The position numbers were made by a program, and so were the translations under genes. From the NCBI GenBank assembly GCA_963823555.1, contig CAWGMA010000003.1, positions 96,001 through 160,000 on the forward strand: a stretch of 64,000 nt of DNA, given 5' to 3'. Positions 24,925 to 61,771 of this stretch are shown piece by piece. The notes beneath the pieces are model-generated. The model saw only the letters and a list, made by a program, of their open reading frames with translations. It was not told the DNA's origin and did not search any database. Each line of letters starts with the position of its first letter. The stretch's first letter is position 1. This stretch comes from Candidatus Eiseniibacteriota bacterium. Lineage in GTDB: Bacteria; Eisenbacteria; RBG-16-71-46; CAVPCR01.

Positions 24925-24939
24925 GCACGAGCCGTGCCA
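24925..24939 (-). promoter_or_regulatory. Sigma54 -24/-12 promoter of the response regulator
   Basis: Minus strand TGGCACGGCTCGTGC (GG-N10-GC). Confidence 0.7.
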
Positions 24940-25025
24940 GCACGGGAGCCCCGTTCAGTGCATTTAACGCTATGCAAAATAATGACTTAATGGATTTTGG
25001 GGCGGCGCAGCGACCCGCGGGGAGT

Positions 25026-25066
25026 CGACAAAGTGTCGCACGACCCGCCCCGTCGGACAAGATGAC
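25026..25066. promoter_or_regulatory. Paired enhancer-like palindromes
   Basis: CGACA-AAG-TGTCG (25026-25038) and GACA-AGA-TGAC (25056-25066). Confidence 0.6.
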
Positions 25067-25127
25067 AGGGCGGGCCGGGATGCGGCGCCGGGCGAGGGGG
25101 TCTTGAGGATCGAGCTCTGGGAGGGCG

Positions 25128-26330
25128 CTATCTCCCGACGACGTGGAAGTCCTGGACGGAAGCCGACTGCACGTCGCCCTCACCGACCAGACGTGTGGCC
25201 CGCCGGGACTGCTCGGGATTCTTCTTGTCCTCGAAGGGGTAGAGGCGGGTGAAGATCAGGTCCGCGGTGACCTTGGTGCGCTCGTCTCCCTCGAAGGTCG
25301 AAAGCAAGAACTCGAGTGGCGAATCCGGCGGCAGCGGATTGAGGATGATCGCACTCCCATCGAGGAACTTGAGCACACGGTGATCCCGGCTGCGGGTGAC
25401 CTGGCCAGTCACGGAGATGCGCTGGTCGGCCAGTGGCTTCAGCACCTCCTCGTCGTCGTATGGCAGTGCCTTGACCGCGATGAAGCCGGAGGGCGGAGGA
25501 TATTCGGCGCGCGCAGGAGCCGTGGGGACCGGTGGAAACTTGCCGAGCAGGCTGACGTCTCCCGACCACGAGATGACCTCGTGACCGACCGTCATCTTCT
25601 TCACAACGACACCCGATGTATCCGCTCGCACGGTGAGCGTGAGAGGCGCGCGTGCTTCCTCGGCGCGCGCGGCATGGGCACGCATGTCGCCACCGTTCTC
25701 GATCAGCAGGAAGGAACCGTCGGCGAGAATGGCCCGGCGCTCATCCACGAAGCGAATCTCCGGCAACGCGACGTGCAGCTGGCGAGAGTGATCGGGGAAG
25801 AAGAGCCAGGACAGGAATGCCTGCTGCACAGGCGGTGTTCCGGCCTGGAGGAACATCTCCTCCACGGTGGCGGAGCGCTCGTGCGGCGCAAAGTGCTGCC
25901 ACGAGGTCCAGGCGCTCGCGGCCGCGAGCAGGAGAAGGAAGACGATGAGAATGATGGTGGGAGTGCTCGTGCGCTCGACCACGAATTCCTCGTCACGCAG
26001 ATCAGCCTCCGTGAGCTGCGGCAGCAGATCGGCGCCGCGCCCCACGGGGAGATGGAACCGGTGCACCATCTCAGCGACTTTCGGCAATTGGTCACGCTGG
26101 ATGAGAGCATGGAACTCCGGCACCGCGCCGCGAGGATCGCGCATGTAGAACTGGCCGACCTTGAGTGGCCTCTTCTCGCCCTCGAGGGGAGCCGGGATCT
26201 CCTTCAACTGGAGGTGGTCGCCGATCACGTGGCCCTCATGCTCCGTGTCGAAGTGCTGGAGCACGAGATGAATCGCGTTCATCTGCTCCTCGATCGTCAG
26301 TTCCTTCTGGTGGGCATTTTCCACCGTCAT
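25128..26330 (-). CDS. Hypothetical membrane-anchored protein, 400 aa
   Basis: GAGGAGGAG RBS before ATG 26330; one strong TM helix (IILIVFLLLLAAASAW); no recognised domain. Confidence 0.75.
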   Translation of the reverse strand: MTVENAHQKELTIEEQMNAIHLVLQHFDTEHEGHVIGDHLQLKEIPAPLEGEKRPLKVGQFYMRDPRGAVPEFHALIQRDQLPKVAEMVHRFHLPVGRGADLLPQLTEADLRDEEFVVERTSTPTIILIVFLLLLAAASAWTSWQHFAPHERSATVEEMFLQAGTPPVQQAFLSWLFFPDHSRQLHVALPEIRFVDERRAILADGSFLLIENGGDMRAHAARAEEARAPLTLTVRADTSGVVVKKMTVGHEVISWSGDVSLLGKFPPVPTAPARAEYPPPSGFIAVKALPYDDEEVLKPLADQRISVTGQVTRSRDHRVLKFLDGSAIILNPLPPDSPLEFLLSTFEGDERTKVTADLIFTRLYPFEDKKNPEQSRRATRLVGEGDVQSASVQDFHVVGR

Positions 26331-26526
26331 CGCAACTCCTCCTCAAAGACGAGATCTCGTGGCATACAAGCTATGGTGGGGCGAGAACGAGCCCCGCGGC
26401 GCACGTGCACGCTTCGGCGCCGCCAATACTAATGCACGGACGGCCTGCCGGGGGGATCGGGAGCCCGGTGCTTGTGCTGGAAGGCGGATCGCCGGGGCGG
26501 GGGCCGGGACGAGCGCCAGGCCAGCT

Positions 26527-26717
26527 GACAGGGTGGCAGATACTTCTTGAAGGTCCGGGTCGAAATGGCGCAGAGGGCCCGGAGAGGGGGCATCTCGAAG
26601 GTTGCCCCGGAGCCCGACCGGACTCCTCGGCGCGCTTGCAAGTGATATATGGACAAGTGGTTATCCGATTTCTGCGCTGAGGACCGAAAGGGCGATCCGG
26701 CCTGGTACGGCTGCTGC
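26527..26717 (+). promoter_or_regulatory. Sigma54 promoter with upstream palindromes and AT-rich tract
   Basis: GACA-GGG-TGGC 26527-26537, GTCG-AAA-TGGC 26559-26569, AT-rich ~26638-26672, TGGTACGGCTGCTGC 26703-26717. Confidence 0.55.
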
Positions 26718-27107
26718 AAATTGCTTCACGCGGTCAGGGACACCGAACAATCGAAAGAGAGATCGGTGGTGTGGTGGATGGGATGGGTGGAGACCTCCTG
26801 ACGAGGTGCGCGAGGCCGGGGCTACCCGGAAGCGCGCACTCGAGCATCAGGGAGGAACCGGTACCCAAATGGGGATGGGTGCTGGGACCGCGTCGCTCGC
26901 TGACTCCCCGGCCCACCGGCCTCCGGGCGGAAGACCGCTCGTGATGGCGATCCGGACCTTCGGGTCCGGCCAGGCGCCGGGATGGGGACGGAAGCGGAGG
27001 CGCCGACCCGGAGGCTGGTTGCCCGGGGAGTTGGAAGCGACCCGTCGAGAGGGCGCCAGGGCTGGTCCCTGGCGCCCTCATACTTTCGCGAGGCGAGAAA
27101 GTCCGCC

Positions 27108-27584
27108 ATGGGTACCAAGCACGCCGATTCCGCAGCCGCTCCTGCGACTCGCGAGCCGCATCCGAGCTGGCTCGATCAGCCGCTCGGCGAGTTGATGATC
27201 AGGGATCCGGTCACGGTGAATGTGACCGACTCGCTGCGCACCGTGCAGTCGCGCATGAGCCAGACCGGTGCCGGGCATATCCCCGTGGTCGATCGCGGTC
27301 GTCCCGTGGGCCTCGTCACCGCACGCGACCTTGCCCGCAGTGTTCCCGTTCCGTTCACCGTGCTCAAGCGAGACGAAATGGAGCGACTTCTCGCCCTGCC
27401 GGTGGCCGAGGTGATGTCGACTCCCGTGGTTGCCTTGCCCACGACCGAGCGAGCGGGGAAGGCCGTCGCGCGCATGGTGGACGAGGGTGTCGGGGCGGTG
27501 CTCGTGGTCGATCCGACCACTGGTGTCCTGGTCGGTCTCATCACCCGATCCACGATCGTAAGTGTCGTCGCGCGGCAAGCCTAG
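27108..27584 (+). CDS. CBS-pair domain protein
   Basis: LGELMIRDPVTV...HIPVVDRGRPVGLVTARDL...VAEVMSTPVV...LVGLITRSTI. Confidence 0.88.
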   Translation: MGTKHADSAAAPATREPHPSWLDQPLGELMIRDPVTVNVTDSLRTVQSRMSQTGAGHIPVVDRGRPVGLVTARDLARSVPVPFTVLKRDEMERLLALPVAEVMSTPVVALPTTERAGKAVARMVDEGVGAVLVVDPTTGVLVGLITRSTIVSVVARQA

Positions 27585-27868
27585 CGCGGCCGGCCGGCAA
27601 GCACGATGCGGCTCCTGCCAGGGTGTCTCCGGGATTGCCTCGGCCACCTGCCAAGAAGTCCGGAAACGCCACCCCGCTCACCTTCTCGCGGCGGTGATTG
27701 GAAGCTGTAAGTGGAGGCAGCGTCCCCGGCTCCGCCCGCGGACGGACAAGCGGCATCCTTTCTGCAGTCCACTCGTTGTGGGGCGCCGCGCGCGGCCCTG
27801 AAAGCCTCCTTCCTTGGCTTCTGCGGGTTCACGCCGCGAACGTTCCCCGAGGAGGAGGTCTCGTTTCC

Positions 27869-28372
27869 ATGCGGATCGGAGTGCCGAGGGAGCGAGCCCC
27901 AGATGAGTGCCGCGTCGGGCTCACGCCCCATCAAGTCCGCCTCCTGGTCGAACACGACCATCGGGTCTACGTCGAGGCCGGGGCCGGCCACGGCGCGGGC
28001 TATGCGGATGAGAGCTATCGTGAAGCCGGTCGGCACATCGTCTACGACGAGGTGGAGGTGTGCAGCCGGTCCGAGCTCCTCGCAAAGATCGGGCCCCTCG
28101 AAACCGAGGAGATCGCTCTCCTCTCCGCCAACCAGATCGTCTTCGCCTTCCAGTCACTGCACACCCTGCCCGCTGTTGCTCGCGAAGGCATCCCGCCCTC
28201 GACCTTCGTGATCCTGGGATGCGGCGTGGCCGGGACGCAGGCGGTGCGCGCCGCCGCCGGTGACGCGGGACAAGGTGCGCGGGATGCGACCGATATGCGC
28301 AGCGCGATCCTTCGCCGCGAACAGCTTGCCGAATGGGTGAATGAGCTCCGGATGCAGTGGGCACCGCGGTAG
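27869..28372 (+). pseudogene. ald: Internally deleted alanine dehydrogenase-like remnant, 167 aa
   Basis: MRIGVPRE...ECRVGLTP...VEAGAGHGAGYADESYREAG N-terminus, then a jump to VILGCGVAG; roughly half the usual Ald length. Confidence 0.65.
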
Positions 28373-28387
28373 AGCAGGGGCAGGATC

Positions 28388-28936: not shown

Positions 28937-28944
28937 AAGCAGCG

Positions 28945-30520: not shown

Positions 30521-30535
30521 GCCGCGGGCGAGCCG

Positions 30536-33411: not shown

Positions 33412-33624
33412 TCAATTAATTTTACTTCAGTTGCCCGCGGCCGTAACCCTCATTAGGGGAGGTGCGTGACGCGCCGCCTTCCTGGCGGGCGTCACCTGGG
33501 GGATGTGCTGTGAGGGCAGGCGGTCCGGGGCTCGAGAGCCCGGACCGCCATCCCGAGGCTCCAACGCCGTCTCCGGCGCCCGCGCGATGCCTGGGCTCGA
33601 GCCGGCACCAAGGAGGTCCCCGCC

Positions 33625-34158
33625 ATGGCCGAGCACGAGCCCGCAGGACTCACCGCGCTCGAAGCCCTGGGTGTCGCCATTCGGGCCGAAGTCGATGCCC
33701 ACAAGATCTACGAGGAGCTCGCCACGCGGGCCGAGGATCCCCTCGTTCGCCGTCGCTTCGAGCTCCTGGCGGCCGACGAGCAGCAGCACCTCGCTTACCT
33801 CGAGGAACGCTGGCAGGAGGTCGCCGGCACGGTGCCTCTCGAGATCCCCCCTTCCCATCTGCCCAAGGGCATGCAGACCGGCGAGCAGCGGGCCACCAAG
33901 AGCATCGAGGAAGTGATCGACCTCGCCATCGAGGAGGAGCGCACCTCCCGGGAGTTCTACCTGCGCGCGGCGCGCGACACCGACGATCTCTCGGGACGCG
34001 CCATGTTCCGCTTCCTTGCCGACATGGAGTACCAGCACTGGATGACGCTGGCTCAAGAGAAGGATCTTCTCGTGCGCTATCCGAACTACGGGCGGCCCGG
34101 GAAGCTGCCCTGGCGTCTCGAGCCGGGCCTGGGCCACGCTCCGAGAAGGGAGAAGTGA
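33625..34158 (+). CDS. Rubrerythrin-like ferritin-superfamily di-iron protein
   Basis: Two E...ExxH halves (AIRAE...DEQQH; AIEEE...MEYQH); no rubredoxin domain. Confidence 0.85.
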   Translation: MAEHEPAGLTALEALGVAIRAEVDAHKIYEELATRAEDPLVRRRFELLAADEQQHLAYLEERWQEVAGTVPLEIPPSHLPKGMQTGEQRATKSIEEVIDLAIEEERTSREFYLRAARDTDDLSGRAMFRFLADMEYQHWMTLAQEKDLLVRYPNYGRPGKLPWRLEPGLGHAPRREK

Positions 34159-34159
34159 C

Positions 34160-34867
34160 GTGATCACGGCCGACCCGACCAACGGCGCCCCGCCGCGTCC
34201 GGGCGAGCTCTCGGCGCGCGAGAGCGCGCTGCGCGCCGCCTTCCTGTCCCAGGTGGAACGCATCCCTGGGGGCGACCGCCTGCGCCGCTGCATTCAGTGC
34301 GGAACTTGCTCCGGATCCTGCCCCGTGAGCTACGCCATGGATGTCCAACCGCGCCAGATCGTCGCCTACTTCCGCGCCGGAGACATCGAGTCGATCCTGC
34401 GCAGCCGCACGATCTGGATCTGCGCTTCGTGCTACGCGTGCACCGTGCGCTGTCCGTCCGGGATCAAGGTGACCGACCTGATCTACGGCCTCAAGCGCAT
34501 GGCGCTCGAGGGCAACATCCGCATGTCCGGGCTGCCCATCTACGCCCTGTCCGAGGAGTTCGTCAAGCAGGTCAACCGCACCGGGCGCAACGAGGAACTC
34601 GGGCTCGTCATGCGCTACAGCCTCAGGACCAAGCCGCTGAGCCTCCTCGGCATGTTGCCGCTCGGCTGGAGGCTCCTGCGTGCCGGCCGCCTGCCCTGGC
34701 GCACGAAGCGCGTCAAGGGGCTCGACGGGCTCCGGCGCATCATCGCCAAGGCCGAGGAGATGGAGCAGATCTATCCGCGCGAAGAGCGGGCGGCGCTGGG
34801 CTATGTGGGCTATGGCACCGTCGCCGAACGGGCCACCGCCGGCGCCGGAGGAGGGGTGCGGGCATGA
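34160..34867 (+). CDS. hdrC: Heterodisulfide reductase subunit C-like
   Basis: CIQCGTCSGSCP and IWICASCYACTVRCP. Confidence 0.9.
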   Translation: MITADPTNGAPPRPGELSARESALRAAFLSQVERIPGGDRLRRCIQCGTCSGSCPVSYAMDVQPRQIVAYFRAGDIESILRSRTIWICASCYACTVRCPSGIKVTDLIYGLKRMALEGNIRMSGLPIYALSEEFVKQVNRTGRNEELGLVMRYSLRTKPLSLLGMLPLGWRLLRAGRLPWRTKRVKGLDGLRRIIAKAEEMEQIYPREERAALGYVGYGTVAERATAGAGGGVRA

Positions 34868-35739
34868 AGTACACCTATTATCCGGGCTGCAGTCTCGAGG
34901 GCTCGTGCACTCCCTACGATCGTTCGTTGCGCAAGGTGATGGAGCTCCTCGGCCATGAGCTCGTGGAGCTCGAGGACTGGAACTGCTGCGGGGCCACGAT
35001 GTACATGTCGGTCCGCGAGACCGTGGCCCTCTCGGTCTCGGCGCGGAACCTGGCCCTCGCCGAGCAAGTTGGAGCGCCCCTCGTGGCACCCTGCAGTGCC
35101 TGTTACACGACGCTGCTCAAGACCAACCGCTACCTGCGGGAGGTCCCCGGTCTGCGCGCGGAGGTCGATGCGGCCCTCAAGGAAGCTGGCCTCTCCTACA
35201 AGCAGACGGTGAGCGTCCGCCATCCGCTCGACATCATCGTCAACGACATCGGGGCCGGTGCGGTGGCGCGGCGCGCGGTGCGGAACCTCAATGGGCTCAA
35301 GATCGCTCCCTACTACGGTTGCCAGATCGTGCGTCCGGAGCCGGCCTTCGACGATCGCGACTGGCCGACCACGATGGATGACCTGTTCGCCGCGTTGGGC
35401 GGGGAGTGCATCTACTTCCCGGACCGCGTGCGTTGCTGCGGCGGCATGTTGATGACGACCTACCCGGAGGTGGGAGCCGAGCTCACCCACGACATCCTCG
35501 ACTGCGCCATGAGCCACGGCGCCGAGGTGATCGTGACCACCTGTCCGCTCTGTCACATGAATCTCGAGACCATGCAGCTGGGCAAGCAGAAGCGGAACGG
35601 CCACCGGCCGCTTCCGATCCTCTTCTTCACCCAGCTCCTCGGTCTCGCTCTCGGGGCGAGCCCCGAGGAGATGGATCTTCACAAGAGCCTGTTGCCACTC
35701 GGCGAGCGGCTCACGGCCCTAGCAGGAGCCTCACGATGA
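34864..35739 (+). CDS. hdrB: Heterodisulfide reductase subunit B-like
   Basis: Two CCG domains: YYPGCS...WNCCGA...PCSAC; YYGCQ...CCGG...TCPLC. ATGA overlap with hdrC. Confidence 0.92.
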   Translation: MKYTYYPGCSLEGSCTPYDRSLRKVMELLGHELVELEDWNCCGATMYMSVRETVALSVSARNLALAEQVGAPLVAPCSACYTTLLKTNRYLREVPGLRAEVDAALKEAGLSYKQTVSVRHPLDIIVNDIGAGAVARRAVRNLNGLKIAPYYGCQIVRPEPAFDDRDWPTTMDDLFAALGGECIYFPDRVRCCGGMLMTTYPEVGAELTHDILDCAMSHGAEVIVTTCPLCHMNLETMQLGKQKRNGHRPLPILFFTQLLGLALGASPEEMDLHKSLLPLGERLTALAGASR

Positions 35740-38700
35740 AGAACGGCGACGAACGGCGGATCGGATTCTTCATCTGTCACTGCGGCACCAACATCGCGGG
35801 CACGGTGGATGTCGAGACCATCGCCCGGCAGATCGGCGAGCTGCCCGGTGTCGTCGTGGCCCGCGATTACCAGTTCATGTGCTCGCAGCCCGGGCAGGAT
35901 CTCATCGGCCAGGACATCCGGGAGCGGGGGGTGAACCGCGTCGTGGTCGCGGCCTGTTCCCCGCAGATGCACGAGCTCACGTTCCGCGGCGCCTGTGATC
36001 GAGCCGGGCTGAACGCGTTCCTCTTCCACATGGCCAACGTGCGCGAGCATTGCGCCTGGGTGCACAGCGATCGCGCCGCCGCAACACGCAAGGCGCTGGC
36101 TCTGTCCCACGCCGCGGTGCGGCGGGTCGCCCACCAGGAGCCGCTCTTTGCCTCGACCGCCAAGATCAATCCCAACACCATGGTGATCGGCGCCGGCATC
36201 GCGGGCATCCAGGCCGCTCTCGACCTGGCCGAGGCCGGGCACGAGGTCTATCTCGTCGAGCGCGAGTCGACGATCGGCGGGAACATGGCGCGCTTCGACA
36301 AGACGTTCCCCACGCTCGATTGCTCCTCCTGCATCCTGACGCCGAAGATGGTGTCGGTGAGCCATCGCGAGAACATCCACATTCTTACCCAGAGTCAGGT
36401 CGAGGAGGTGGCCGGCTATGCCGGCAACTTCCAGGTGCAGGTGCGGAAGCGCTCGCGCTACGTCACCGACAAGTGCACATCCTGCCAGGAATGCGAGAAG
36501 GTGTGCCCGGTCCGCGTGCCCAATCCTTTCGACCTGGGGCTCAAGACCCGCACCGCCATCCACAAGGCATTCCCCCAGGCGGTGCCCAACACCTATCTGA
36601 TCGAGAAGCAGGAGCGACCGCCGTGCCGCGAGGCCTGCCCCATCGGGCAGGAAGCGGCGGGGTACATCGCTCTCATCGCCGAGCGGCGCTTTGCCGAGGC
36701 GGCGGAGCTCATTCGCATGCGGAACCCGTTGCCCGCGATCTGCGGGCGCGTCTGCTATCACCCCTGCGAGTCCGAGTGCAACCGCGGGTTCGTCGACGAG
36801 CCGGTCTCGATCCAGCACCTGAAGCGCTTCGCGCTCGACTGGCAGCACGAGCACAACGGTCACGGCGAGCTGGAGCCAAAGGGCGGGATCACGGAACACG
36901 ACAAGGTGGCGATCATCGGCAGCGGCCCGGCGGGGCTCGCCTGCGCGCATGACCTGGCCATCCGCGGCTACCGCCCCGTCGTCTTCGAGCAGCATCACGT
37001 CATCGGCGGCATGCTGGCCGTCGGCATCCCGTCGTATCGCCTGCCGCGCGAGAAGCTGGAGGAGGATATCGACTTCATCCGCCAGCTCGGGGTCGAGTTC
37101 CGTCTCGGAGTCACCGTGGGCCGGGATCTGACCCTCGACGAGGTGTGGAACGAGGGTGTGAAGGCCATCTTCATCGCCAGCGGAGCGCATCACGGGATCG
37201 CGCTCGGGATCCCCGGCGAGGATCTGCCGGGTGTCCTCCAGGGCGTGAACTTCCTCCGGCGCTGCGCGCTCGGAATCAAGCAACCTGTGGGCAAGAACGT
37301 GGCGGTGATCGGTGGTGGCAACACCGCCGTCGACGCGGCGCGAACGGTGCTGCGCGAGGGGGCGGAGCGGGTGACGATTCTCTACCGCCGGACCCGCGCC
37401 GAGATGCCGGCGGTCGAGCACGAGATCGTGGATGCGGAAGCCGAGGGTGTGCGCTTCGCGTATCTCACCGCGCCGGTGGAGGCCATCGGCGAGCACGGTC
37501 GGCTGGTCGGCCTGCGCTGCGTGCGCATGGAGCTCGGTGAGCCCGATGCCTCCGGGCGGCGGCGCCCGGTGCCGGTCACCGGCTCGGAGCACGACCTCGC
37601 CTTCGACATGGTGATCGCTGCCGTCGGCCAGCGACCGGATCTCGATTTCGTCGGCCATGGTGACGGTAACGGCAACGGCAAGAAGGCGCCCGAATCGGGG
37701 CTCCACAGGAGCAAGAGCGACACCCTGATCGTGAACCGGGAGACTTTCGCGACCAACGTGCCGGGTATCTTCGCCGGCGGTGATGTGGTCTTCGGGCCGG
37801 CGACGGTGATCGCGGCCATGGGCGCCGGAAAGCGCGCCGCGGAGGCGATCGACAAGCACCTGCGCGGAGAGCCGCTCGCGGATTTCGAGACCCACATGGT
37901 GCCGTCGGAGATCCGCCGGGGGGAGGAGTTCCGGCCCCATCCCTACTCGCAGCCCTACACGCAGATCCCGAAGGAGCCGCGGCAGGCGATGCCGAAGCTC
38001 GACGGCGCGACGCGGGCGCGGGGCTGGGAGGAAGTCGAGCTCGGCTACACCGAGGAGCAAGCCGTGGCGGAGGCCAAGCGCTGTCTCCACTGCGGGGTGT
38101 GCGTCGATTGCTACCAGTGTGTCAAGGCCTGTCAGCCGGGGGCGGTGGACCATGCGCTCCGCGACGAGGTGCTCGATCTCGAGGTCGGGCAGATCCTCGT
38201 CTCGACCGGGTTCAGCCTCTTCGATCCGCGGCGCATGGCGCAATACGGCTATGGCAAGCTCGACAACGTGGTCACGAGCCTCGAGTTCGAGCGCATGCTG
38301 TCGGCCACCGGTCCCACGGGGGGCAAGGTGCTCCTCAAGAACGGGCAGGCGCCGCGCGCCGTCGCCATCGTCCACTGTGTCGGCTCGCGCGACGAGAACT
38401 ACAACCGCTACTGCTCGCGCGTCTGCTGCATGTATGCGCTCAAGTTCGCGCATCTGGTCCACGATCGTACCGACGCCGAGATCTACCAGTTCTACATCGA
38501 CATGCGGGCCTTCGGGAAGGGCTACGAGGAGTTCTTCGGGCGCGTGCTCGAGGAGGGAACCAACGTCATCCGCGGCAAGGTGGCCGAAGTCATCGCCGCG
38601 CCGCATGTGGCGCCGGGCGAGGGCTTTCTCCTGGTGCGCGCCGAGGACACGCTTCTCGGCAAGTTCCGCGAGATCCCGGTCGACATGGTCATCCTCTGCT

Positions 38701-39176
38701 GCGGCCTCGAGCCGGCCACCGGATCGGCCGAGCTCCGGCACCTCCTGCGGCTGAGCCAGAGCCCGGACGGCTTCCTGCTCGAGCGGCATCCGAAGCTCGA
38801 TCCGACCGGGACCGCGAGCGACGGCATCACCATCGCCGGGTGCGCGCAGGGGCCGAAGGACATTCCGGACACGGTGGCCCAGGCCTCGGCTGCCGCATCG
38901 CGCATGCTCGGTTTGATCGCGCGGGGTGAGCTCATGATCGATCCGGTCAAGGCCGAGGTCGATGCCACGCTCTGCGGCGGCTGCCGTACCTGCAACAACC
39001 TCTGCCCGTACAACGCGGTGCACTGGAACGAGGAGAAGAAGGTCGCCGAGGTGGTGGAAGCCCTGTGCAAGGGCTGCGGCACCTGTGTGGCGGCCTGCCC
39101 GGCCGGCGCGATCTCGGGCAAGGGCTTCACCGATGACCAGATCTATGCCGAGATCGAAGGCATCCTGGCGGTATAG
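35736..39176 (+). CDS. hdrA: HdrA with inserted GltD/NfnB-like NAD(P)H oxidoreductase module (HdrL-like), 1146 aa
   Basis: ICHCGTNIAG, AACSPQMHE, GAGIAG, DKTFPTLDC, CVGSRD, YCSRVCCMY, CAQGPKDIPD; insert PPCREACP...CGRVCYHPCE...GSGPAG...GGGNTAVDAAR...YRRTR. Confidence 0.92.
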   Translation: MKNGDERRIGFFICHCGTNIAGTVDVETIARQIGELPGVVVARDYQFMCSQPGQDLIGQDIRERGVNRVVVAACSPQMHELTFRGACDRAGLNAFLFHMANVREHCAWVHSDRAAATRKALALSHAAVRRVAHQEPLFASTAKINPNTMVIGAGIAGIQAALDLAEAGHEVYLVERESTIGGNMARFDKTFPTLDCSSCILTPKMVSVSHRENIHILTQSQVEEVAGYAGNFQVQVRKRSRYVTDKCTSCQECEKVCPVRVPNPFDLGLKTRTAIHKAFPQAVPNTYLIEKQERPPCREACPIGQEAAGYIALIAERRFAEAAELIRMRNPLPAICGRVCYHPCESECNRGFVDEPVSIQHLKRFALDWQHEHNGHGELEPKGGITEHDKVAIIGSGPAGLACAHDLAIRGYRPVVFEQHHVIGGMLAVGIPSYRLPREKLEEDIDFIRQLGVEFRLGVTVGRDLTLDEVWNEGVKAIFIASGAHHGIALGIPGEDLPGVLQGVNFLRRCALGIKQPVGKNVAVIGGGNTAVDAARTVLREGAERVTILYRRTRAEMPAVEHEIVDAEAEGVRFAYLTAPVEAIGEHGRLVGLRCVRMELGEPDASGRRRPVPVTGSEHDLAFDMVIAAVGQRPDLDFVGHGDGNGNGKKAPESGLHRSKSDTLIVNRETFATNVPGIFAGGDVVFGPATVIAAMGAGKRAAEAIDKHLRGEPLADFETHMVPSEIRRGEEFRPHPYSQPYTQIPKEPRQAMPKLDGATRARGWEEVELGYTEEQAVAEAKRCLHCGVCVDCYQCVKACQPGAVDHALRDEVLDLEVGQILVSTGFSLFDPRRMAQYGYGKLDNVVTSLEFERMLSATGPTGGKVLLKNGQAPRAVAIVHCVGSRDENYNRYCSRVCCMYALKFAHLVHDRTDAEIYQFYIDMRAFGKGYEEFFGRVLEEGTNVIRGKVAEVIAAPHVAPGEGFLLVRAEDTLLGKFREIPVDMVILCCGLEPATGSAELRHLLRLSQSPDGFLLERHPKLDPTGTASDGITIAGCAQGPKDIPDTVAQASAAASRMLGLIARGELMIDPVKAEVDATLCGGCRTCNNLCPYNAVHWNEEKKVAEVVEALCKGCGTCVAACPAGAISGKGFTDDQIYAEIEGILAV

Positions 39177-39190
39177 GAGGGAGATGCCCC

Positions 39191-39607
39191 ATGGATAACG
39201 GTGGGTTCGAGCCCAAGATCGTCGGTTTCCTCTGCAACTGGTGCGCCTACTCGGGGGCGGATCTGGCCGGCGTGTCCCGGCTTTCCTCCTCGCCCTCGCT
39301 CCGGGTGATCCGCGTCATGTGCACGGGTCGAATCGACCCCGGATTCGTCTTCAAGGCGCTGGCCGGGGGGGCGGATGCGGTGTTGCTCGCCGGCTGCCAT
39401 CCGGGCGATTGCCATTACCAGGAAGGCAACTTCAAGTGTCTGCGCCGGTTCATGCTGATCAAGAAGATGGTCACCGATTTCGGCATTGATGAGCGGCGGG
39501 TGCGGCTCGAGTGGATCTCCGCTTCCGAGGGTGAGAAATTCGCGCGCGTGAGCAAGGAAATGGAAACAGAGGTCCGCGAGCTGGGTCCGCTCGAGCTCGT
39601 GACGTAA
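39191..39607 (+). CDS. mvhD: Methyl-viologen-reducing hydrogenase delta subunit
   Basis: FLCNWCAYSGAD, RVMCTGR, GCHPGDCHY, WISASEG. Confidence 0.95.
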   Translation: MDNGGFEPKIVGFLCNWCAYSGADLAGVSRLSSSPSLRVIRVMCTGRIDPGFVFKALAGGADAVLLAGCHPGDCHYQEGNFKCLRRFMLIKKMVTDFGIDERRVRLEWISASEGEKFARVSKEMETEVRELGPLELVT

Positions 39608-39612
39608 CGGGG

Positions 39613-40638
39613 GTGCGACCGATGGATAATCCCGACCGGGTCGAGAGCCAGCCGGCGGCGCCGGCCGAAGCGATGCCGAAGCAGAGGCCGAAGCTCGCCC
39701 TCTACTGGGCGGCGAGCTGCGGCGGCTGCGAGATCGCCATCCTCGATCTCCACGAGAAGGTGCTCGAGATCGAACCCAACTTCGAGCTCGTTTTCTGGCC
39801 GGTGGCGATGGATGTCAAGTACGCCGATGTCGAAGCGATGGCGCCGGGGTCGATCGACATCTGTCTGTTCAACGGCGCGATCCGGAACGCGGAGAACGAG
39901 CACCTGGCGAAGGTGCTGCGCGAGAGGGCCAAGGTTCTCGTCGCTTTCGGGTCCTGCGCCCACGAAGGGTGCATCCCGGCGCTCGCCAACACGACGACGA
40001 AGGAGAAGATCCTGCGTTTCGTCTATCACGATTCGCCGTCGACCGATGCGGCGAACGGTGGGGAGCCGAGGACGCGCTTCGATCTTCCCGAAGGCGAGGT
40101 CGAGCTGCCCGAGCTCTACGAATCGGTGAAGGCGCTCGATCAGGTCGTGGACGTGGACTACATCATTCCCGGTTGCCCGCCCCAGGCCCAGCGCATCTGG
40201 GAGGTGCTCGAGCTCATCATCTCCGGCGCGCCGCTGCCGCCGAAGGGCAGCGTGATCGGGGCGGGGCAGGAGACCTGCTGCGAGGAGTGCACGCGCGAGC
40301 GCGAGGAGAAGCGCCTGACCCAGTTCGTGCGCCCGCACCAGGTGCTCGCCGAGGCGGATCGCTGCCTCCTCGACCAGGGCATCATCTGCCTGGGGCCGGC
40401 CACGCGCTCCGGCTGCGGCGCGCTCTGCCCCACGGCGGGCATGCCCTGCCGCGGCTGCTACGGACCGCCGCCGCTTGTCCATGACCAGGGCGCCAAGATG
40501 ATCTCGGCCCTGGCCTCGGTCGTGGACTCGACGGACGAGCTCGAGCTCGAGCAGATCATGGGGCAGATCGCCGATCCCGTGGGCACCTTCTATCGTTTCA
40601 GCATGGCCCACTCGCTCCTGAGGAGGGTTCAGCCATGA
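39613..40638 (+). CDS. mvhG: [NiFe] hydrogenase small subunit (group 3c)
   Basis: AASCGGCE, FGSCA, PGCPP, CLGPATRSGCGALCP...CRGCYG. Confidence 0.9.
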   Translation: MRPMDNPDRVESQPAAPAEAMPKQRPKLALYWAASCGGCEIAILDLHEKVLEIEPNFELVFWPVAMDVKYADVEAMAPGSIDICLFNGAIRNAENEHLAKVLRERAKVLVAFGSCAHEGCIPALANTTTKEKILRFVYHDSPSTDAANGGEPRTRFDLPEGEVELPELYESVKALDQVVDVDYIIPGCPPQAQRIWEVLELIISGAPLPPKGSVIGAGQETCCEECTREREEKRLTQFVRPHQVLAEADRCLLDQGIICLGPATRSGCGALCPTAGMPCRGCYGPPPLVHDQGAKMISALASVVDSTDELELEQIMGQIADPVGTFYRFSMAHSLLRRVQP

Positions 40639-42173: not shown

Positions 42174-42201
42174 CGTCGGTAGCAGAGAAGAGCAGGCCAG
42201 G

Positions 42202-42669
42202 ATGAAGCGGAACGGCGAGCGCACGCTCGTGCTCGGGCTCGGGAACGAGATCCTCGGCGACGACGGCGTCGGGCTCAGGGCGGCGCGCGCGGTGGCGGAC
42301 GTCGCGGGGGACCGTGCGGATCTCGTCGAGGCCTGCGTCGCCACCATCGATCTCCTGCCGATCGTGGCCGGCTACGACCGGGTGATCGTCGTCGATGCCT
42401 ACGTTTCGGACGAGGACCTGCCCGGCACCATGGTGCGCACGACACCGGAAGAGCTGCCGCGGGGCTTCGGCTACCGCTCTCTCCACACGCTGCCTTTCCG
42501 CGAGATGCTCGAGTTCGGTCGCGAGATCGGGCTCGCGATGCCGCGCGAGATGGTGATTCACGGGCTCTGTGTCGCCGATCCGGCGACGTTCGGCGAGACC
42601 TTCAGCGAGCCCGTGGCAGGCTCGTGGCGGGCGTGGGCGGAAGCCATCGCGCGAGCGGAGTTCGCCTAG
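42202..42669 (+). CDS. Hydrogenase maturation protease
   Basis: LGLGNEILGDDGVG, VIVVDA; directly after mvhA. Confidence 0.9.
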   Translation: MKRNGERTLVLGLGNEILGDDGVGLRAARAVADVAGDRADLVEACVATIDLLPIVAGYDRVIVVDAYVSDEDLPGTMVRTTPEELPRGFGYRSLHTLPFREMLEFGREIGLAMPREMVIHGLCVADPATFGETFSEPVAGSWRAWAEAIARAEFA

Positions 42670-44777: not shown

Positions 44778-46670
44778 TCAGTCCGGTCCCGGATGGATCT
44801 TCAGCGCCTTGATGCGGGAGCTCAAGGTCGTGGGTCGGATCCCGAGCAGGCGCGCCGCGCCGTCGGGCCCGGCGATCTTGCCGTTCGTGGCCGCGAGGGC
44901 TCGCTCGATGTTCGCGCGCTCGATCGCGCGCAGCTCCCCCTCCGTCAGCACGCGATCGGGGGGCGATGCATCAGGACCCCTCTCGGTCGCCGCTCCCGAC
45001 AGCATGCGTTCCAGATCGACGCGCCCCTGCCGTGCGGTGATCACGGCGCGCTCGATCACATTGCGTAACTCACGGACGTTGCCGGGCCAGCTGTATCCGC
45101 GAAGCCTGAGCTTCGCTGCTTCGTCCAGGGGCGAGACCTTGCGGCCCATCTCGCGCGCGAACTTCGTGACGAACATGTCCGCGAGGAGCAGGACGTCCTC
45201 GCCGCGCTCACGCAGCGGAGGCACCCGGATCGGGAACACGTTGAGCCGGTAGTAGAGATCCTCCCGAAACGAGCCGTCCTTGATGGCCCCGGCGAGCTCT
45301 CGATTGGTGGCGGCGATCACGCGCACATCGACCTGGCGCGTGCGCGAGCTGCCGACCGGTTCGAATTCGCCCTCCTGCAGCACGCGCAACAGCTTGCCCT
45401 GGAGATCGATCGGCAGCTCCCCGACCTCGTCGAGGAAGATCGTGCCGCGATCCGCCAGGGCGAATCGTCCGTCGCGCCGCTGCGTGGCTCCGGTGAAGGC
45501 GCCGCGCTCGTGCCCGAAGAGCTCGCTCTCCACGAGGTTGGCCGGGATCGCCGCGCAGTTGACCTTGATCATGGGCTGGCCGCGGCGCTTGCTGGCGCCG
45601 TGGATCGCAGCGGCGATGAGCTCCTTCCCGGTTCCGGTCTCGCCCTGGATCAGGACCGTGGCATCGGTGTCCGCCACCTGATCGACATCGCGGAGCACGG
45701 TGAGCAGAGCCTTGCTGTTGCCGAGGATCTGTCCGTACTGGCCGAGATCGCGCAGCTCCTGGCGCAGGGTCTCTGCTTCCAGCTCCAGCGAATGGATGCG
45801 TCGCTCGGCCGCCAGGCGGTCGTCGATGTTGCGCAGGATGAGGGTGTAGAAGCGGTGGTTGCGGACCATGAACTGGGATAGCGATGCCTCGGCAGGGAAC
45901 TCGCTGCCGTCGGCGCGAGCGGCACTCAACCCGCCCGCCACCCACGTGGTACGGCGACCTGGAGGCAGGCCGTCCAGCTCGCGCGTGAGTGCCGCCAGGC
46001 GATCCGGCGCATCGGCGCGCAGGAAGTCGGTGAGGGATCGGCCCATCCATGCCGTCGCCTGGCAAGCGAAGACCGCCTCGGCGGCCGGGTTCACGCGCGT
46101 GACGCGGAAGTCCGCATCGAACTCGATGATCGCGTCCATGGCGCTGTCGACCAGCCGGCTCAGCTTGAGCTCCCGCTCCCGGACCTCGCCTTCGGCGCGC
46201 AGGCGGCGCAGCTCGGCCGCGGCGCGGTTGGCGAAGATGCGGAACAGATCGGTATGGCGGGGATCCTCCGGCATCGGGCGGGAGTCGAGCACAGCCAGGT
46301 GGCCCAGGATGGCGCCGTCCGTATCGTGGAGCGGCACCCCCATGTAGCTCACGGCTTCGGCCGGGGGCAGATCGGGGTCTTCGGGAAACAGCTCGATGAC
46401 GCGGTCGGGGATGAGCACCAGGCGATCGTTGTCGATCACCGGCTCGCACGGAGTGCCGGCCAGAGCGTATTCGTAGTCCTCGACCCAGCGGTCCTCGAGC
46501 CAGAAGGCATAGGCTCGCATCCGCCGCCGTTCGGCGACGAACTCGGTGACCCACGCCCCGCGCACGTCGAGGGCTCGGGCCAGGTGGCGAACCAGCTCGC
46601 GGAAGAAGGGCTCCCCGGTAGCGGTCGCGGTGCCCTCGACGATGGCGCGTAGCGCCTCTTGCTCGTTCAT
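44778..46670 (-). CDS. Sigma54 enhancer-binding protein GAF-PAS-AAA+-HTH (FhlA-like)
   Basis: GAF (LAGTPCE...SYMGVPL), PAS (MDAIIE...NPAAE), GETGTGKE, GAFTGA, GAARLLGIRPTTL. Confidence 0.93.
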   Translation of the reverse strand: MNEQEALRAIVEGTATATGEPFFRELVRHLARALDVRGAWVTEFVAERRRMRAYAFWLEDRWVEDYEYALAGTPCEPVIDNDRLVLIPDRVIELFPEDPDLPPAEAVSYMGVPLHDTDGAILGHLAVLDSRPMPEDPRHTDLFRIFANRAAAELRRLRAEGEVRERELKLSRLVDSAMDAIIEFDADFRVTRVNPAAEAVFACQATAWMGRSLTDFLRADAPDRLAALTRELDGLPPGRRTTWVAGGLSAARADGSEFPAEASLSQFMVRNHRFYTLILRNIDDRLAAERRIHSLELEAETLRQELRDLGQYGQILGNSKALLTVLRDVDQVADTDATVLIQGETGTGKELIAAAIHGASKRRGQPMIKVNCAAIPANLVESELFGHERGAFTGATQRRDGRFALADRGTIFLDEVGELPIDLQGKLLRVLQEGEFEPVGSSRTRQVDVRVIAATNRELAGAIKDGSFREDLYYRLNVFPIRVPPLRERGEDVLLLADMFVTKFAREMGRKVSPLDEAAKLRLRGYSWPGNVRELRNVIERAVITARQGRVDLERMLSGAATERGPDASPPDRVLTEGELRAIERANIERALAATNGKIAGPDGAARLLGIRPTTLSSRIKALKIHPGPD

Positions 46671-53407: not shown

Positions 53408-53413
53408 ACGCCG

Positions 53414-56538: not shown

Positions 56539-58133
<1,595 letters not shown>

Positions 58134-58134
<1 letters not shown>

Positions 58135-59282
58135 TACTCACCTCCTGGGTCGGGCCGGAGCCCCATGAGCTCCTCGAGCTTGTCGAGAACCTCGCTCACC
58201 TCGGGCAGCACGCCCCCGACGCGCCCGTAGAAGTGGACCGGGGCGAGGCTGCCGGCCGCGAGCCGTACATCTTCGACCATTTGACCGGTTGAGAGCTCGA
58301 CCGTGAGCAGGAATCGTGATTGCTCGGCGAGCTCGGCCAGGGGTTCGGAGGGGAAGGGCCAGAGCGTGATGGGCCGGAAGAGGCCGACGCGGATGCCCCG
58401 TTCGCGGGCGATGTCGACCACGCTCTGCATGAGACGGGCGACGATCCCGTAGGCGACGATCGCGACCTCGGCGTCCTCGGCGCGGTAGGTCGTCCAGCGC
58501 GTCTCCTTGAGCTCGATCTCGTCGTACTTCCGCTTGAGGTGTCGGATGTGGTCCTCGAGCTCGTGGTGGTCGAGGTGGATCGACGAGATCAGATTGTGCA
58601 TCGACGCGGCGTCACCGCGCACAGCCCACTCGGGATCGCCCGGGGGCAGCTTCGGCTCGGGAAGGGTCACGGGCTCCATCATCTGCCCGATGGTGCCGTC
58701 CGCGATGACACAGACCGGATTGCGGTACTGGTCGGCCAGCTCGAACGCGAGCATCGTGAAGTCGCACATCTCCTGCGCCGACGCCGGAGCCAGCACGATG
58801 ACGCGATAGTTGCCGTGTCCCCCGCCCTTGACCATCTGGAAGTAGTCAGCCTGCTCGGGCCCGATGTTGCCGAGGCCGGGGCCGCCGCGCATGATGTCGA
58901 TGAGCACGAGCGGCAGCTCCGATCCGGCGGCGTAGGAGATGCCCTCCTGCTTCAGGCTGATGCCGGGGCTCGAGGAGGCGGTCATCGTCCGGACCCCCGC
59001 TGCCGAAGCCCCGTACACCATGTTGATCGCCGCGGTCTCGCTCTCGGCCTGGATGAACGTGCCGCCCACCAGCGGCAGCAGCCGAGCCGCCTCATGGGCG
59101 ATCTCGCTCGCCGGGGTGATCGGATAACCGAAATAGCAGCGACAACCGGCGAGCACGGCGCCGCGGACTGCCGCTTCATTGCCCTTGATCAGGATCGTGG
59201 GTTGGGAGGAAGCGCGCCCGGCCGCTGGCTTCGGGTCCGACGAGGGAGCGGCGCCCGTCGGGGGAGTGGTGGTTGCGGTCAT
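58134..59282 (-). CDS. 2-oxoacid:ferredoxin oxidoreductase alpha subunit (VorB-like)
   Basis: [48 protein letters not shown]. Confidence 0.92.
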
Positions 59283-59569
59283 CGCTTCTCCTCCTCGCGT
59301 CGATAGACGGAGATCGTCCCCGGCTCGGGGCAAACATAGAAGCAGATCGCACAGCCCGTGCACCCCGAGCCCGAATAGATGGCCGGGTGATAGCCGTGCG
59401 CATTGAACCCATCGGAAAGCGAGATCACCTTCGGCGGGCAGAAGACCACGCAGAGCGAGCAACCCTTGCACAGCTCCTGGTCGATGGCCACGAGACCGCG
59501 ATCCCCGGCAGGGATCTCTGGCTCGCTATGCTTGCCGACCGGGACTGCGGGTGAAGTCGAATGCACCAT
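59279..59569 (-). CDS. 2x[4Fe-4S] ferredoxin, delta subunit
   Basis: [12 protein letters not shown] and [12 protein letters not shown]. Confidence 0.92.
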
Positions 59570-59585
59570 ATTCTTCTCCTCCGGC

Positions 59586-60086
59586 CTAGGCGGTTCCGGC
59601 CGAGTGCGATTCGGCCTGGCCTTCCTGTCCTACCGGATGTGGCTCCTTCACCACGAAGACCGAGCAATGGGCTAGCCGGACCACCTTCTCCGCGGTCGAA
59701 CCGAGAACCAGGTGAGCAAGGCCCCGCCGGCCATGAGTTCCCAGGATGATGAGATCAGCCCCTTCCTCCCCCGCGGCTGCCAGGATCTCCTCCGCGGCGA
59801 AGCCGACACGCACGCTGACCGTGGCCTCGACGCCGGCCGCGAAGGCCGTGGCCGCGATGCGCTCCAGGCGTCCCGTCGCGCCTTCGCGGGCCCGCGCGTA
59901 GTAGTCATCATAGGTACGCTGGTCCACGAACACCGGGGTTGCATAGGCATTGACCTGGGGCAAGACATGCAGGAGGACGAGTCGCGAGCGCTTCATGCGC
60001 GCCCATTCGATCGCCCAGCCTGCGATCGCCTCGCACGGTTCGCCCACGTCGAGCGGAACGAGAATGGTGGCGATCGTCGCGAACAT
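59586..60086 (-). CDS. Universal stress protein (UspA family)
   Basis: [29 protein letters not shown]. Confidence 0.92.
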
Positions 60087-60182
60087 GTCTTCTCTCCCAG
60101 GACCTCGTGCTCGCCAGCACCGGGGGCGACGTCGGTACCGGCCGCGCACAAGAGAGGGGCGGGCAACCCGTGGTTATTCAGG

Positions 60183-60420
60183 GCAAAAAGGAGTCCAACG
60201 GCCGGATCGACCCGGCATCGAATGCAGCCCATATCATTATGTAAAATATAGAGTTGTAGCTGACCTTGGATGGCGACCTGACCGGCTCGGTTTTGTCGGC
60301 CGCCATGGTCGGACATTATGTCCGGTATGGAAAATCGGCCGTGGACACGGGGTCGACTGCTGATGCGGATGGCGAGCGGGGGCCCGACTCTGGTTTCCTG
60401 CACCGTGGCACGTTGCTTCC
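60183..60420. promoter_or_regulatory. Divergent sigma54 control region
   Basis: Minus-strand TGGACTCCTTTTTGC 60183-60197; AT tract ~60230-60258; CGGACA-TTA-TGTCCG 60310-60324; GACA-CGG-GGTC 60344-60354; plus-strand TGGCACGTTGCTTCC 60406-60420 (imperfect -12). Confidence 0.6.
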
Positions 60421-60475
60421 GTGACATGCGGATACAGCAGTCCGCCCGTGCCTCCACCCTGGGGAGGAAACCGCC

Positions 60476-60787
60476 GTGCGTGACCAGGACCAGATTCTCA
60501 AGGATCGGGAGAGCGAGGTCCTCGATCGGTTCCGCGCGAACCTGGATCGCGGCCACCTCAGCCCGCACTTCAAGACGCGCCCTCTCGATCACGAGTGGGT
60601 GGATCGGGATCATCTTCTCGTCCACCTGAACGATGTCGAACAGATCACGGAGATGGAGATCCGATCTCTTCAGGAGGCGCTCGTGGTCCAGAGCTCCTGG
60701 ACGATCGTGCCGCAGCACCTGAACCGTATGCGGATCAGCTTCCTCTGCCAGCTGGCGACCCGGCCACCTCGGGATCCGACCCGGTAG
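60476..60787 (+). CDS. Hypothetical protein, 103 aa
   Basis: GGAGG RBS, GTG start, coding-like GC3 bias; no family recognised. Confidence 0.65.
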   Translation: MRDQDQILKDRESEVLDRFRANLDRGHLSPHFKTRPLDHEWVDRDHLLVHLNDVEQITEMEIRSLQEALVVQSSWTIVPQHLNRMRISFLCQLATRPPRDPTR

Positions 60788-61053
60788 CAGCTTGCAGCGT
60801 CGGGATTCGGGCTCCGGACGCGCAAGGCAAAGGAGAGGGCCGGGTGGCCAGAGGCAGCCACCCGGCCCATGTTCCGGCCGTGAGACGGTCCCGGTCGTCC
60901 CACGGGCCGGCAGCGCACGCTACTGGCGTAGCGTCGCGCCCTTGGGTGCCAGGCCCCCCGACCCGACACCCTAGTTGGAGCGCGGTCCCGGTCGCGCTCC
61001 TAAGACTCTATCCGTTCCCCCTGTCGGCCCTGTTTCAGCGGACCGGCTTCAGT

Positions 61054-61521
61054 TCACCCCTGCTGCCAGATTTCATTGCTCCGGCGCGAGTTCTGGATCA
61101 GCGCCAGCACCGCCAGCAAGGCCCGAAGGGCATCGCTTTCAGAGAAGATCCCCACGATCTCGTCGCCCGCCAGGACCGGCAGCGCACCCACCTGATGGTC
61201 CACCAGGAGCCTGGTGGCATCGGCCAGACTCGTGTGTGGGCCGACCACCAGCGGCTTCTGCGTCATGATCTGTCGGACAGCGATGCGATTGAGCTGGGCT
61301 TCGGTCTCCTTGTCGCCCGGGGGTGCCATCATGGATGGCCAGATGGTTCGCAGGTCGCGATCGGAGACGATCCCGATCACGCGTCCTTGCTCCACCACGG
61401 GAAGGTGCCGGAAGCCCCCTGCATCCATCAGCCGACGGGCTTCCAGGACCGTACACGCGGGACCTGCCGTCTCGGGCGCCGGGGTCATCCATTCCTGGAC
61501 TTCGAACCGGGATACTGGCAT
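61054..61521 (-). CDS. CBS-pair domain protein (AcuB-like)
   Basis: VQEWMTPAP...FRHLPVV...GIVSDRDL...VRQIMTQKP...VGALPVL...GIFSESD. Confidence 0.9.
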   Translation of the reverse strand: MPVSRFEVQEWMTPAPETAGPACTVLEARRLMDAGGFRHLPVVEQGRVIGIVSDRDLRTIWPSMMAPPGDKETEAQLNRIAVRQIMTQKPLVVGPHTSLADATRLLVDHQVGALPVLAGDEIVGIFSESDALRALLAVLALIQNSRRSNEIWQQG

Positions 61522-61629
61522 TCGAACGCTCCAGGAGAGCCACGCCGGGGCGCTCCAACGAAGTCCCTTGAGGCAGAGCGCAGACCAACCTGCCGCCTCT
61601 GGCGGGTGCAGTCCGTAGTCCTTTCCCTG

Positions 61630-61771
61630 GCAGGCCCCGTGCCGAAAAGGATGCAGTCATGATAAATATGTAACTTATTGTCATTTCAATGGTAATGGGC
61701 TTGACGCAGGCGAAAGGAGGCCATTCTTGCGGACAAACTGTCGACGCGCCAGGTGGTTGCCCGGCCATGTC
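61630..61771 (-). promoter_or_regulatory. Sigma54 promoter with IHF-like tract and enhancer palindrome
   Basis: Minus-strand CGGCACGGGGCCTGC 61630-61644; TAACTTATTGTCA tract; GACA-AAC-TGTC 61732-61742; TGTC half-site 61768-61771. Confidence 0.65.

Follow-up and report, generated by a model that had tools for sequence, protein, structure and literature searches.

Paired GACA-N3-TGTC boxes before predicted sigma-54 promoters mark a probable conserved regulon beside a globin-kinase gene in a Candidatus Eiseniibacteriota bacterium

Paired GACA-N3-TGTC palindromes (boxes) stand before sigma-54-type promoters in a Candidatus Eiseniibacteriota bacterium, raising the question of which protein binds them, which signal it obeys and which genes it serves. 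The locus lies in a window of 64,000 nucleotides (GCA_963823555.1, contig CAWGMA010000003.1, positions 96,001 to 160,000) of a genome called G000 here, which is 92.5% complete. A first-pass annotation of this window had described four intergenic regions (A to D) sharing a layout of -24/-12 site, AT tract and boxes, and had placed them under one regulator, probably the adjacent NtrC-type response regulator (23328-24857), a bacterial enhancer-binding protein (bEBP). The present analysis indicates that the boxes are conserved enhancer sites before predicted sigma-54 promoters and that the predicted regulon is real; the earlier account was incomplete in that it overlooked a globin kinase, a candidate RNA from promoter B and targets outside the window. 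The relatives compared included G001 (same genus), G003 and G004 (same order) and the metagenome contigs L225 and L227. Genes of G000 were taken from a home-made gene caller (3538 genes, 16% intergenic), and scans for sigma-54 and integration host factor (IHF) sites used general consensus sequences.

Conservation is the decisive evidence for the predicted boxes. Between G000 and G001, 62 of the 64 half-site letters of the eight boxes are identical, compared with 148 of 382 letters in the box-to-promoter spacers. Region A recurs in G001, G003, L225 and L227, and regions B, C and D recur in G001. The A pair keeps its 29-bp distance in G001, G003 and L225 and is 23 bp apart in L227. The B pair agrees with that of G001 in all 16 half-site letters, in spacing and in its 141 bp to G-24, and its distal box was also found in L225. 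With three mismatches, the B box at 26559 looked doubtful, yet it is exactly conserved in G001; similarly, promoter C matches just 7 of 12 consensus letters, yet 18 of its 19 letters are the same in G001. The A and B boxes of G001 lie back to back in one intergenic region, and a 400-codon gene between promoters A and B (25128-26330, no family match) is present in G000 only and looks like an insertion.

The positions given in the first-pass annotation held for every -24/-12 site and for all but one of the eight boxes, as did its pair spacings for A, B and C and its 88-bp distance to the -24 end in A and D (Table 1). The second D site had been put at 29 bp; that register (61761) has four mismatches and a matrix score of -13, and the true box at 61764 sits within a 14-nt block conserved in G001. 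In the general layout, 29-33 bp, or some three turns of the helix, separate the two boxes of a pair; the box closer to the promoter is 87-160 bp away from the -24 element, and the DNA between these two is rich in A/T. From the centre of the nearer box to G-24, the distance is 95 bp at A, at D and at A of G001, 87-109 bp at the other A orthologues, 122 bp at C and 141 bp at B in both genomes. The AT tracts stood (the best 20-mer has 14-18 A/T in A-D, and 4.6% of random intergenic 87-mers reach 14), and the AT block of D is conserved in G001. IHF-like matches with at most two mismatches were present in A, C and D, whereas B has none. G000 carries rpoN and four HU/IHF-family genes. A plus-strand GG-N10-GC at promoter D was set aside because no gene follows it. 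The possible divergent site at 60406 is not conserved in place in G001, where a GG-N10-GC lies slightly further on, and the 103-aa protein downstream of it had no family match in the searches made.

Table 1 Features of the predicted regulon in the window (positions count from its first letter; mm, mismatches)
Feature	Position	Strand	Details
Protoglobin (globin-coupled) histidine kinase	21115..22446	+	443 aa; likely cognate sensor; Pfam Protoglobin, HisKA, HATPase_c
S-adenosylmethionine (SAM) methyltransferase	22473..23315	+	Between kinase and regulator, not constant; Pfam; in G001, L224, L226; not in G003, L225, L227
NtrC-type response regulator/bEBP	23328..24857	-	REC Asp56, GAFTGA, Fis helix-turn-helix (HTH); intact REC, AAA+ and HTH, Walker A/B
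Promoter A, sigma-54 -24/-12	24924..24939	-	TGGCACGGCTCGTGCG; predicted start 24913; kept in G001, G003, L225, L227
Box pair A	25027-25037 (0 mm) + 25056-25066 (1 mm)		29 bp apart
Box pair B	26527-26537 (1 mm) + 26559-26569 (3 mm)		32 bp apart
Promoter B, sigma-54 -24/-12	26703..26718	+	TGGTACGGCTGCTGCA; predicted start 26729; kept in G001, L225
Candidate non-coding RNA	26729..27086	+	~360 nt, GGA-rich; 5' third variable, then a hairpin, a long rod that branches at its tip and a closing GC hairpin (27049-27079) with short U tail
Tandem-CBS protein	27108..27584	+	Read-through from B likely reaches it; an N-terminal alanine dehydrogenase fragment comes next
usp - ferredoxin subunit - vorB-type alpha - fused beta/gamma 2-oxoacid:ferredoxin oxidoreductase operon	56539..60086	-	Predicted target of C; VorB model above cut-off
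Promoter C, non-consensus -24	60182..60197	-	TGGACTCCTTTTTGCC; predicted start 60171
Box pair C	60312-60322 (0 mm) + 60344-60354 (1 mm)		32 bp apart; kept in G001
Possible divergent sigma-54-like site	60406..60421	+	-12 reads CC, uncertain; towards 103-aa gene 60476-60787
Tandem-CBS protein	61054..61521	-	Predicted target of D; 82% orthologue in G001
Promoter D	61629..61644	-	CGGCACGGGGCCTGCC; predicted start 61618; 21-nt block identical in G001
Box pair D	61732-61742 (0 mm) + 61764-61774 (2 mm)		32 bp apart

The genome-wide distribution of the boxes was also examined. Seventeen of the 41 perfect boxes in G000 are intergenic, against 6.0 expected (P = 1.7e-4), and no other GACA spacer is enriched in its intergenic DNA. 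Intergenic pairs 27-33 bp apart number eight, versus zero to two for 12 control patterns. Pairs of at most two mismatches stand at 5 of 272 sigma-54 candidates against zero or one for the controls. A box matrix built from regions A, C and D with the orthologous regions, leaving B out, scored at least 12 at 8 of 269 further sigma-54 candidates, compared with a mean of 0.67 (maximum 6) for 60 permuted matrices; B is one of the eight, and two of them are a single locus. Exact degenerate-pattern pair searches in five relatives were too strict to inform. The 103 perfect boxes of G003 were not counted as evidence, because they belong in part to a dispersed repeat (3 of the 15 loci inspected are near-identical copies). 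This repeat is at least 130 nt long, carries a perfect box (L049, L051, L058) and has many similar matches in G003. G004 has three consecutive boxes with spacings of 28 and 21 bp (L173, G004:C430:2924-2983). Intergenic palindromes stronger than the box in G000 are TGTT-N8-AACA (42 versus 2 expected), GTTT-N6-AAAC, TTTC-N4-GAAA and ATGT-N10-ACAT, likely parts of one longer element.

Among the 17 bEBPs of G000, the recognition helix of 23328-24857 occurs in none of the other 16, and it is unchanged in G001, G003, L224 and L225. None of the other 16 genes has a flanking box pair or falls in the regulator's clade, including the second bEBP of the window (44778-46670), which has a different helix. 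As a control set, 80 other bEBP loci from many phyla were taken from a search with the whole regulator that covered 1 of 64 parts of the contig collection and gave mostly generic bEBPs, and the box matrix was run over 500 nt either side of each gene. The sole two loci sharing the helix, L064 and L059, rank first and second (29.8 and 29.1; next 18.4), a result of 1 in 3160 if placed at random. Locus L061, whose NmpR-like protein was identified through its S/T/U neighbours and serves as a stand-in for NmpR of Myxococcus xanthus, scores -0.5. At L064, the two boxes are spaced by 19 bp and the gene lacks a preceding sigma-54 site, and the regulator may therefore act as a repressor there. In a tree of the AAA+ and HTH regions, the regulator forms a clade (support 100/99) with L059, L064 and proteins of Rokubacteria/NC10, separate from L061 and all other bEBPs of G000, the alignment including the HTH. 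The proposal that the adjacent regulator controls all four regions is thus supported by sequence footprinting and by the association of recognition helix and box in other genomes, and 23328-24857 very likely binds the boxes.

The regulator clade has members in Myxococcales, for which 30 loci were available and 29 were scored (one left out, short flank), starting 60 nt before the stop codon since boxes can overlap the stop. A box pair precedes gspC at 24 of these 29 loci, always 32 bp apart, and a sigma-54 site was found at 26. The pair is present at 24 of 26 loci with the helix LGIAARTIYRK and at none of the three with a changed second helix residue, and 98 of 100 permuted matrices gave no pairs. 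These genomes are kin and include L059, so they do not amount to 29 independent tests. The gene order in these members is regulator-gspC-gspD. Because nla4 is MXAN_2516 (PMC11980068) and GspD is MXAN2514 (PMC3222651) in the sections of these sources drawn on here, the Myxococcales regulators are likely Nla4 orthologues, an assignment based on gene order and locus numbers rather than on M. xanthus sequence. The G000 regulator has in common with them the clade, the helix bar one residue and the boxes. In contrast, the likely orthologues have no adjoining globin kinase and their target is type II secretion, whereas the G000 regulator does not stand beside gsp genes; common to both are clade and helix.

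The kinase gene 21115-22446 is the sole G000 match to its globin domain. All 24 aligned homologues share the proximal His116 and the distal Tyr63 of this kinase, and these two residues align with the His and Tyr of HemAT (1or4) and of the globin-coupled kinase AfGcHK (5ohe), where they are the axial ligand and the distal residue (PMC8697598, in the sections drawn on here). The kinase and regulator genes are convergent at all six loci where this could be assessed (G000, G001, G003, L224, L225 and L227), with kinase identity down to 56%; the L226 contig stops too early for assessment. In G004, a longer globin kinase precedes a different bEBP without boxes. The kinase core is of the ZraS/AtoS type, with ZraS as its best solved relative, and is nearer the NmpS-like core (139 bits) than the NmpU-like core (89 bits). 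An NmpS-like query from L061 gave only kinase-core matches in G000 and an NmpT-like query none at E 1e-10 (genome 92.5% complete), and no NmpS or NmpT stands beside the pair in G001, G003, L224, L225 or L227. Direct kinase-regulator pairing is the simplest reading, because convergence is kept, no NmpS/NmpT-like protein was found and the core is nearer the NmpS-like one. The globin kinase is very probably the regulator's partner. The signal is probably haem-borne, oxygen or redox, haem binding being predicted, and we lean towards a regulon that is on at low oxygen. The anaerobic nature of the targets, together with the failure to find an inverting relay, leads to the prediction that the kinase is active without oxygen. 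Intact haem-copper oxidases in the relatives and a bd oxidase in G000 fit organisms that meet both oxygen states. The haem-copper oxidase subunit I of G000 itself (C1:552981-554217) lies in eight pieces in several frames with one stop, as a result of decay or assembly errors, and is intact in G001, G003 and G004.

The predicted targets were examined inside and outside the window. The usp gene of the C operon is the only stand-alone Usp gene in G000. RNA evidence came from assembled contigs of four sediment metatranscriptomes, from which strand and start are not readable. One contig lies over usp (59913-60157), and the CBS gene of D has contigs in all four runs, reaching 61567-61597. At B, C and D, the contigs end 14-51 nt inside the predicted start, which is compatible with these starts, and none crosses a promoter. 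The top matrix match outside the window lies before an NfnAB-like enzyme (C2:198562). Next come matches before a multiheme-cytochrome cluster (C4:293821), a hemerythrin (C1:1769487) and a secreted multiheme protein (C1:989994), whose gene diverges from those for alanine dehydrogenase and CoA transferase; B follows them. G001 retains both boxes and promoters for the C4 cluster and for two hemerythrins. In L225, the orthologue of the CBS gene 27108 heads a CBS-alanine dehydrogenase-CoA transferase-aminotransferase series divergent from the regulator. Genes for alanine dehydrogenase and CoA transferase, with aminotransferase or vor, stand beside the regulator in L225, L227 and L064, suggesting that amino-acid fermentation was the original core. 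A 'CBS' match in G003 was not counted, being IMP dehydrogenase.

Further observations on these genes were made in passing. The alanine dehydrogenase fragment of the window (27869-28372) is N-terminal only, and the full-length gene is at C1:987827-988963. In L227, a 54-nt alanine dehydrogenase leader with seven GGA motifs (8163-8216) follows a sigma-54-like site and one perfect box, and may be under CsrA control. Box pairs or strong boxes before ccsA-hemA (C1:10668-10763), a beta-propeller gene (C2:503428) and citrate synthase (C3:734793) may mark further or repressed targets; some of them have no convincing or well-placed sigma-54 site, and the box and promoter of the beta-propeller gene recur in relatives (G001, L036). 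A predicted protein at C2:492969-495575 has 35 CxxCH motifs, and 21 proteins of G000 have at least three. An operon for rubrerythrin, HdrC/B/A-like proteins, MvhD/G/A hydrogenase and a maturation protease (33625-42669) is divergent from a LysR gene and has no boxes; RNA contigs cover 33477-33831 of the rubrerythrin region in two of the four runs.

Promoter B had been assigned to the CBS gene at 27108. The promoter itself stood, but not the CBS gene as its first product, since the two are about 400 nt apart and G001 has no CBS gene at that place. The intervening stretch is 85% identical to G001 over 324 nt, and a 213-nt core is 93% identical, compared with 88% for the regulator gene, with no frame showing synonymous bias. 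A 107-codon frame with a good-looking ribosome site was rejected, given a stop in G001 and nine replacement versus two silent changes. The RNA folds with a z-score of -4.95, and its final GC hairpin shows one compensatory change between G000 and G001. RNA contigs (26750-26976, 26751-27040 and 26765-26982) match it with zero differences in three of the four metatranscriptomes, and within 19.9 kb full-length contigs occur only here and at the rubrerythrin region. We consider it likely that promoter B makes a discrete RNA. The U tail was too short to be detected by the terminator scan, and read-through from B to the CBS gene is therefore plausible. No Rfam family fits this RNA, and no antisense target stood out, the longest exact match being 14 nt. 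The stretch between promoter and CBS gene in L225 is similar in length and folds (z -2.8), but it was rejected as the same RNA with a model match of E 0.16. The RNA contains 18 GGA (top 0.3% of intergenic windows) and four GGAUG (top 0.7%), many of the GGA within predicted stems, and the G001 copy has 13 GGA. GGA richness together with the csrA gene of G000 makes a CsrA sponge the first guess, which we hold as tentative. A 254-codon frame at C1:192979-193743 encodes a CsrA with a long C-terminal extension.

Sigma-54 and an NtrC-type regulator also drive a small RNA in CbrB-CrcZ, and in the DosRST dormancy regulon a haem gas-sensing kinase controls Usp and CBS proteins under hypoxia. DosRST differs in its GAF-haem sensors, its LuxR-type regulator and the absence of sigma-54. 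In GlrR-GlmY/GlmZ, sigma-54, IHF and an NtrC-type regulator drive a small RNA and the 4-bp half-site is the same, but the site is TGTC-N10-GACA, in reverse orientation and with a longer spacer (PMC3045617, in part). AfGcHK of Anaeromyxobacter Fw109-5 (PDB 5ohe) has the same globin-HisKA-HATPase architecture and aligned haem-pocket residues (PMC8697598, in part), whereas its globin is distant (E 5e-11), the kinase core here is of another type as described above and the polarity is predicted to be reversed. NmpRSTU of M. xanthus likewise combines a protoglobin kinase with an NtrC-type sigma-54 activator, paired palindromic enhancers, autoregulation and CBS, Usp and hemerythrin targets (PMC11841059, in part). 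However, the NmpR box is GCGCA-N5-TGCGC (PMC11841059) rather than GACA-N3-TGTC, and no good pair of it was found at the 272 sigma-54 candidates of G000. Furthermore, the NmpS/NmpT relay was not found in G000, the regulator lies on a separate branch and has another helix than the NmpR-like protein of L061, and the kinase is just 27% identical to the NmpU-like protein there. The NmpR targets include cbb3 oxidase and hemN (PMC11841059), in contrast to the fermentative and multiheme genes and the RNA predicted here. Judged from sequence, the system works like NmpRSTU but is not a member, as it differs in three of the four defining features tested.

The reading that we moderately favour is that the boxes are bound by 23328-24857 and that this regulator, once phosphorylated directly by the globin kinase, would switch on a low-oxygen programme. 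In bEBP systems, two phosphorylated dimers on the boxes assemble as a ring; the DNA is looped through IHF or through its own curvature, and the sigma-54 complex is then opened at the cost of ATP. Here, the globin kinase would be active when oxygen-free, opposite to AfGcHK and NmpU, and would phosphorylate the regulator directly. Two phosphorylated dimers on a box pair would then form the ring, with the DNA looped by IHF or an intrinsic bend, and ATP hydrolysis by the regulator would open the sigma-54 complex. The regulator would activate its own gene at A (positive autoregulation). C would serve Usp and a branched-chain 2-oxoacid:ferredoxin oxidoreductase (VOR), B and D the CBS proteins, and B also the RNA. 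Outside the window, a hemerythrin, two multiheme-cytochrome loci and the NfnAB-like enzyme would follow, joined in relatives by alanine dehydrogenase, CoA transferase and aminotransferase for amino-acid fermentation.

The points that weigh against this proposal are set here beside the readings they bear on. Single boxes are modestly enriched, ranking 102nd of 3328 palindrome types; at three mismatches, eight pairs compare with zero to five for the controls, one pattern reaching five. We nevertheless give hardly any credence to chance or repeat-derived palindromes, which the 41 perfect copies genome-wide (within the range of other spacers) and the repeat-derived part of the G003 excess would suit, in view of the selective conservation of half-sites, the pair spacing and the exact conservation of B in G001. 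It is very improbable that another DNA-binding protein uses the boxes, be it another of the 17 bEBPs, among which C2:115858 has a partly similar helix (GLRTLYRK), or a factor independent of sigma-54: the helix-box association holds across phyla, the box geometry to -24/-12 sites is fixed, and L082, near C2:115858 in the tree, scores 6.3 (upstream flank only). As the RNA contigs reveal no strand or start and all four runs could stem from a single campaign, they are a weak hint. Two RNA sequences give no covariation support and cannot prove a structure, and the RNA model finds G000 and G001 only, among 31 genomes. Obvious oxygen-related genes without boxes are cydA, the broken cox1 and the rubrerythrin-hdr-mvh operon; the kinase gene, a further (third) stand-alone CBS gene and three of the five hemerythrins also have none, which weighs against a general oxygen regulon. 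In addition, the regulator's clade has no adjacent globin kinase in L059 and L064, the L064 genome having no protoglobin above the cut-off, and the box therefore does not imply oxygen sensing.

Another objection concerns the sign of the kinase. The Fe(II)-O2 and Fe(III) forms of AfGcHK are active and its Fe(II) form is inactive (PMC8697598, in part), the opposite polarity to that predicted here, and the globin of 21115-22446 retains its His and Tyr. The same wiring could thus run with an oxygen-activated kinase as an oxygen-exposure response of a mostly anaerobic organism, in which Usp, CBS proteins and hemerythrin protect and oxidoreductases are re-made after damage; the frameshifted cox1 of G000 fits such an anaerobic habit. 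We regard this as a real possibility, unlikely overall: the strongest targets are VOR, the NfnAB-like enzyme and multiheme cytochromes, cydAB and rubrerythrin have no boxes, and COX1 genes are intact in the relatives. Moreover, hypoxia induces Usp, CBS and hemerythrin genes of the NmpR regulon, where the oxygen-active NmpU is inverted by NmpS (PMC11841059, in part). The boxes and regulator could also be read correctly while the input is a metabolite (amino acids, 2-oxoacids or energy state) acting through another kinase or a hidden NmpS-like relay, with the globin kinase a mere neighbour or indirect input. That the conserved core targets are amino-acid fermentation genes speaks for it, as do L064, with vor-alanine dehydrogenase-CoA transferase beside a same-helix regulator without globin kinase, and the 21 kinase-core proteins of G000, one with an N-terminal REC. 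This reading appears rather improbable given the convergence of kinase and regulator at every assessable locus, the failure to find a full-length NmpS-like or any NmpT-like match in G000, and a kinase core nearer to an NmpS-like than to an NmpU-like core and with ZraS as its best solved relative, NmpS and ZraS both being kinases of NtrC-type regulators.

No account of the GACA-N3-TGTC box or of this system was found in the literature searched, including the text of PMC4641369, PMC6615313 and PMC3333781 with supplements (five terms; motif logos in figures were not covered). A fuller picture, which we put forward only as speculative, is that a globin kinase of reversed sign and an Nla4-clade activator wired straight to each other, run an anaerobic regulon of amino-acid fermentation and multiheme respiration with a new sponge-type RNA, the clade and its box having been recruited for type II secretion in myxobacteria. 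If so, Nla4 would gain both a known DNA site and one direct target. For the likely orthologues of this M. xanthus regulator, the prediction is a pair of GACA-N3-TGTC boxes in front of gspC, spaced by 32 bp, and it is testable at once in a laboratory strain. The conserved RNA, of no known family, would be an addition under predicted sigma-54 control. For this uncultured lineage, the locus would provide a complete and testable oxygen-response circuit of sensor, activator, box and targets, built from parts of the NmpRSTU kind without the inverting relay, which makes the sign of the globin kinase a sharp question.

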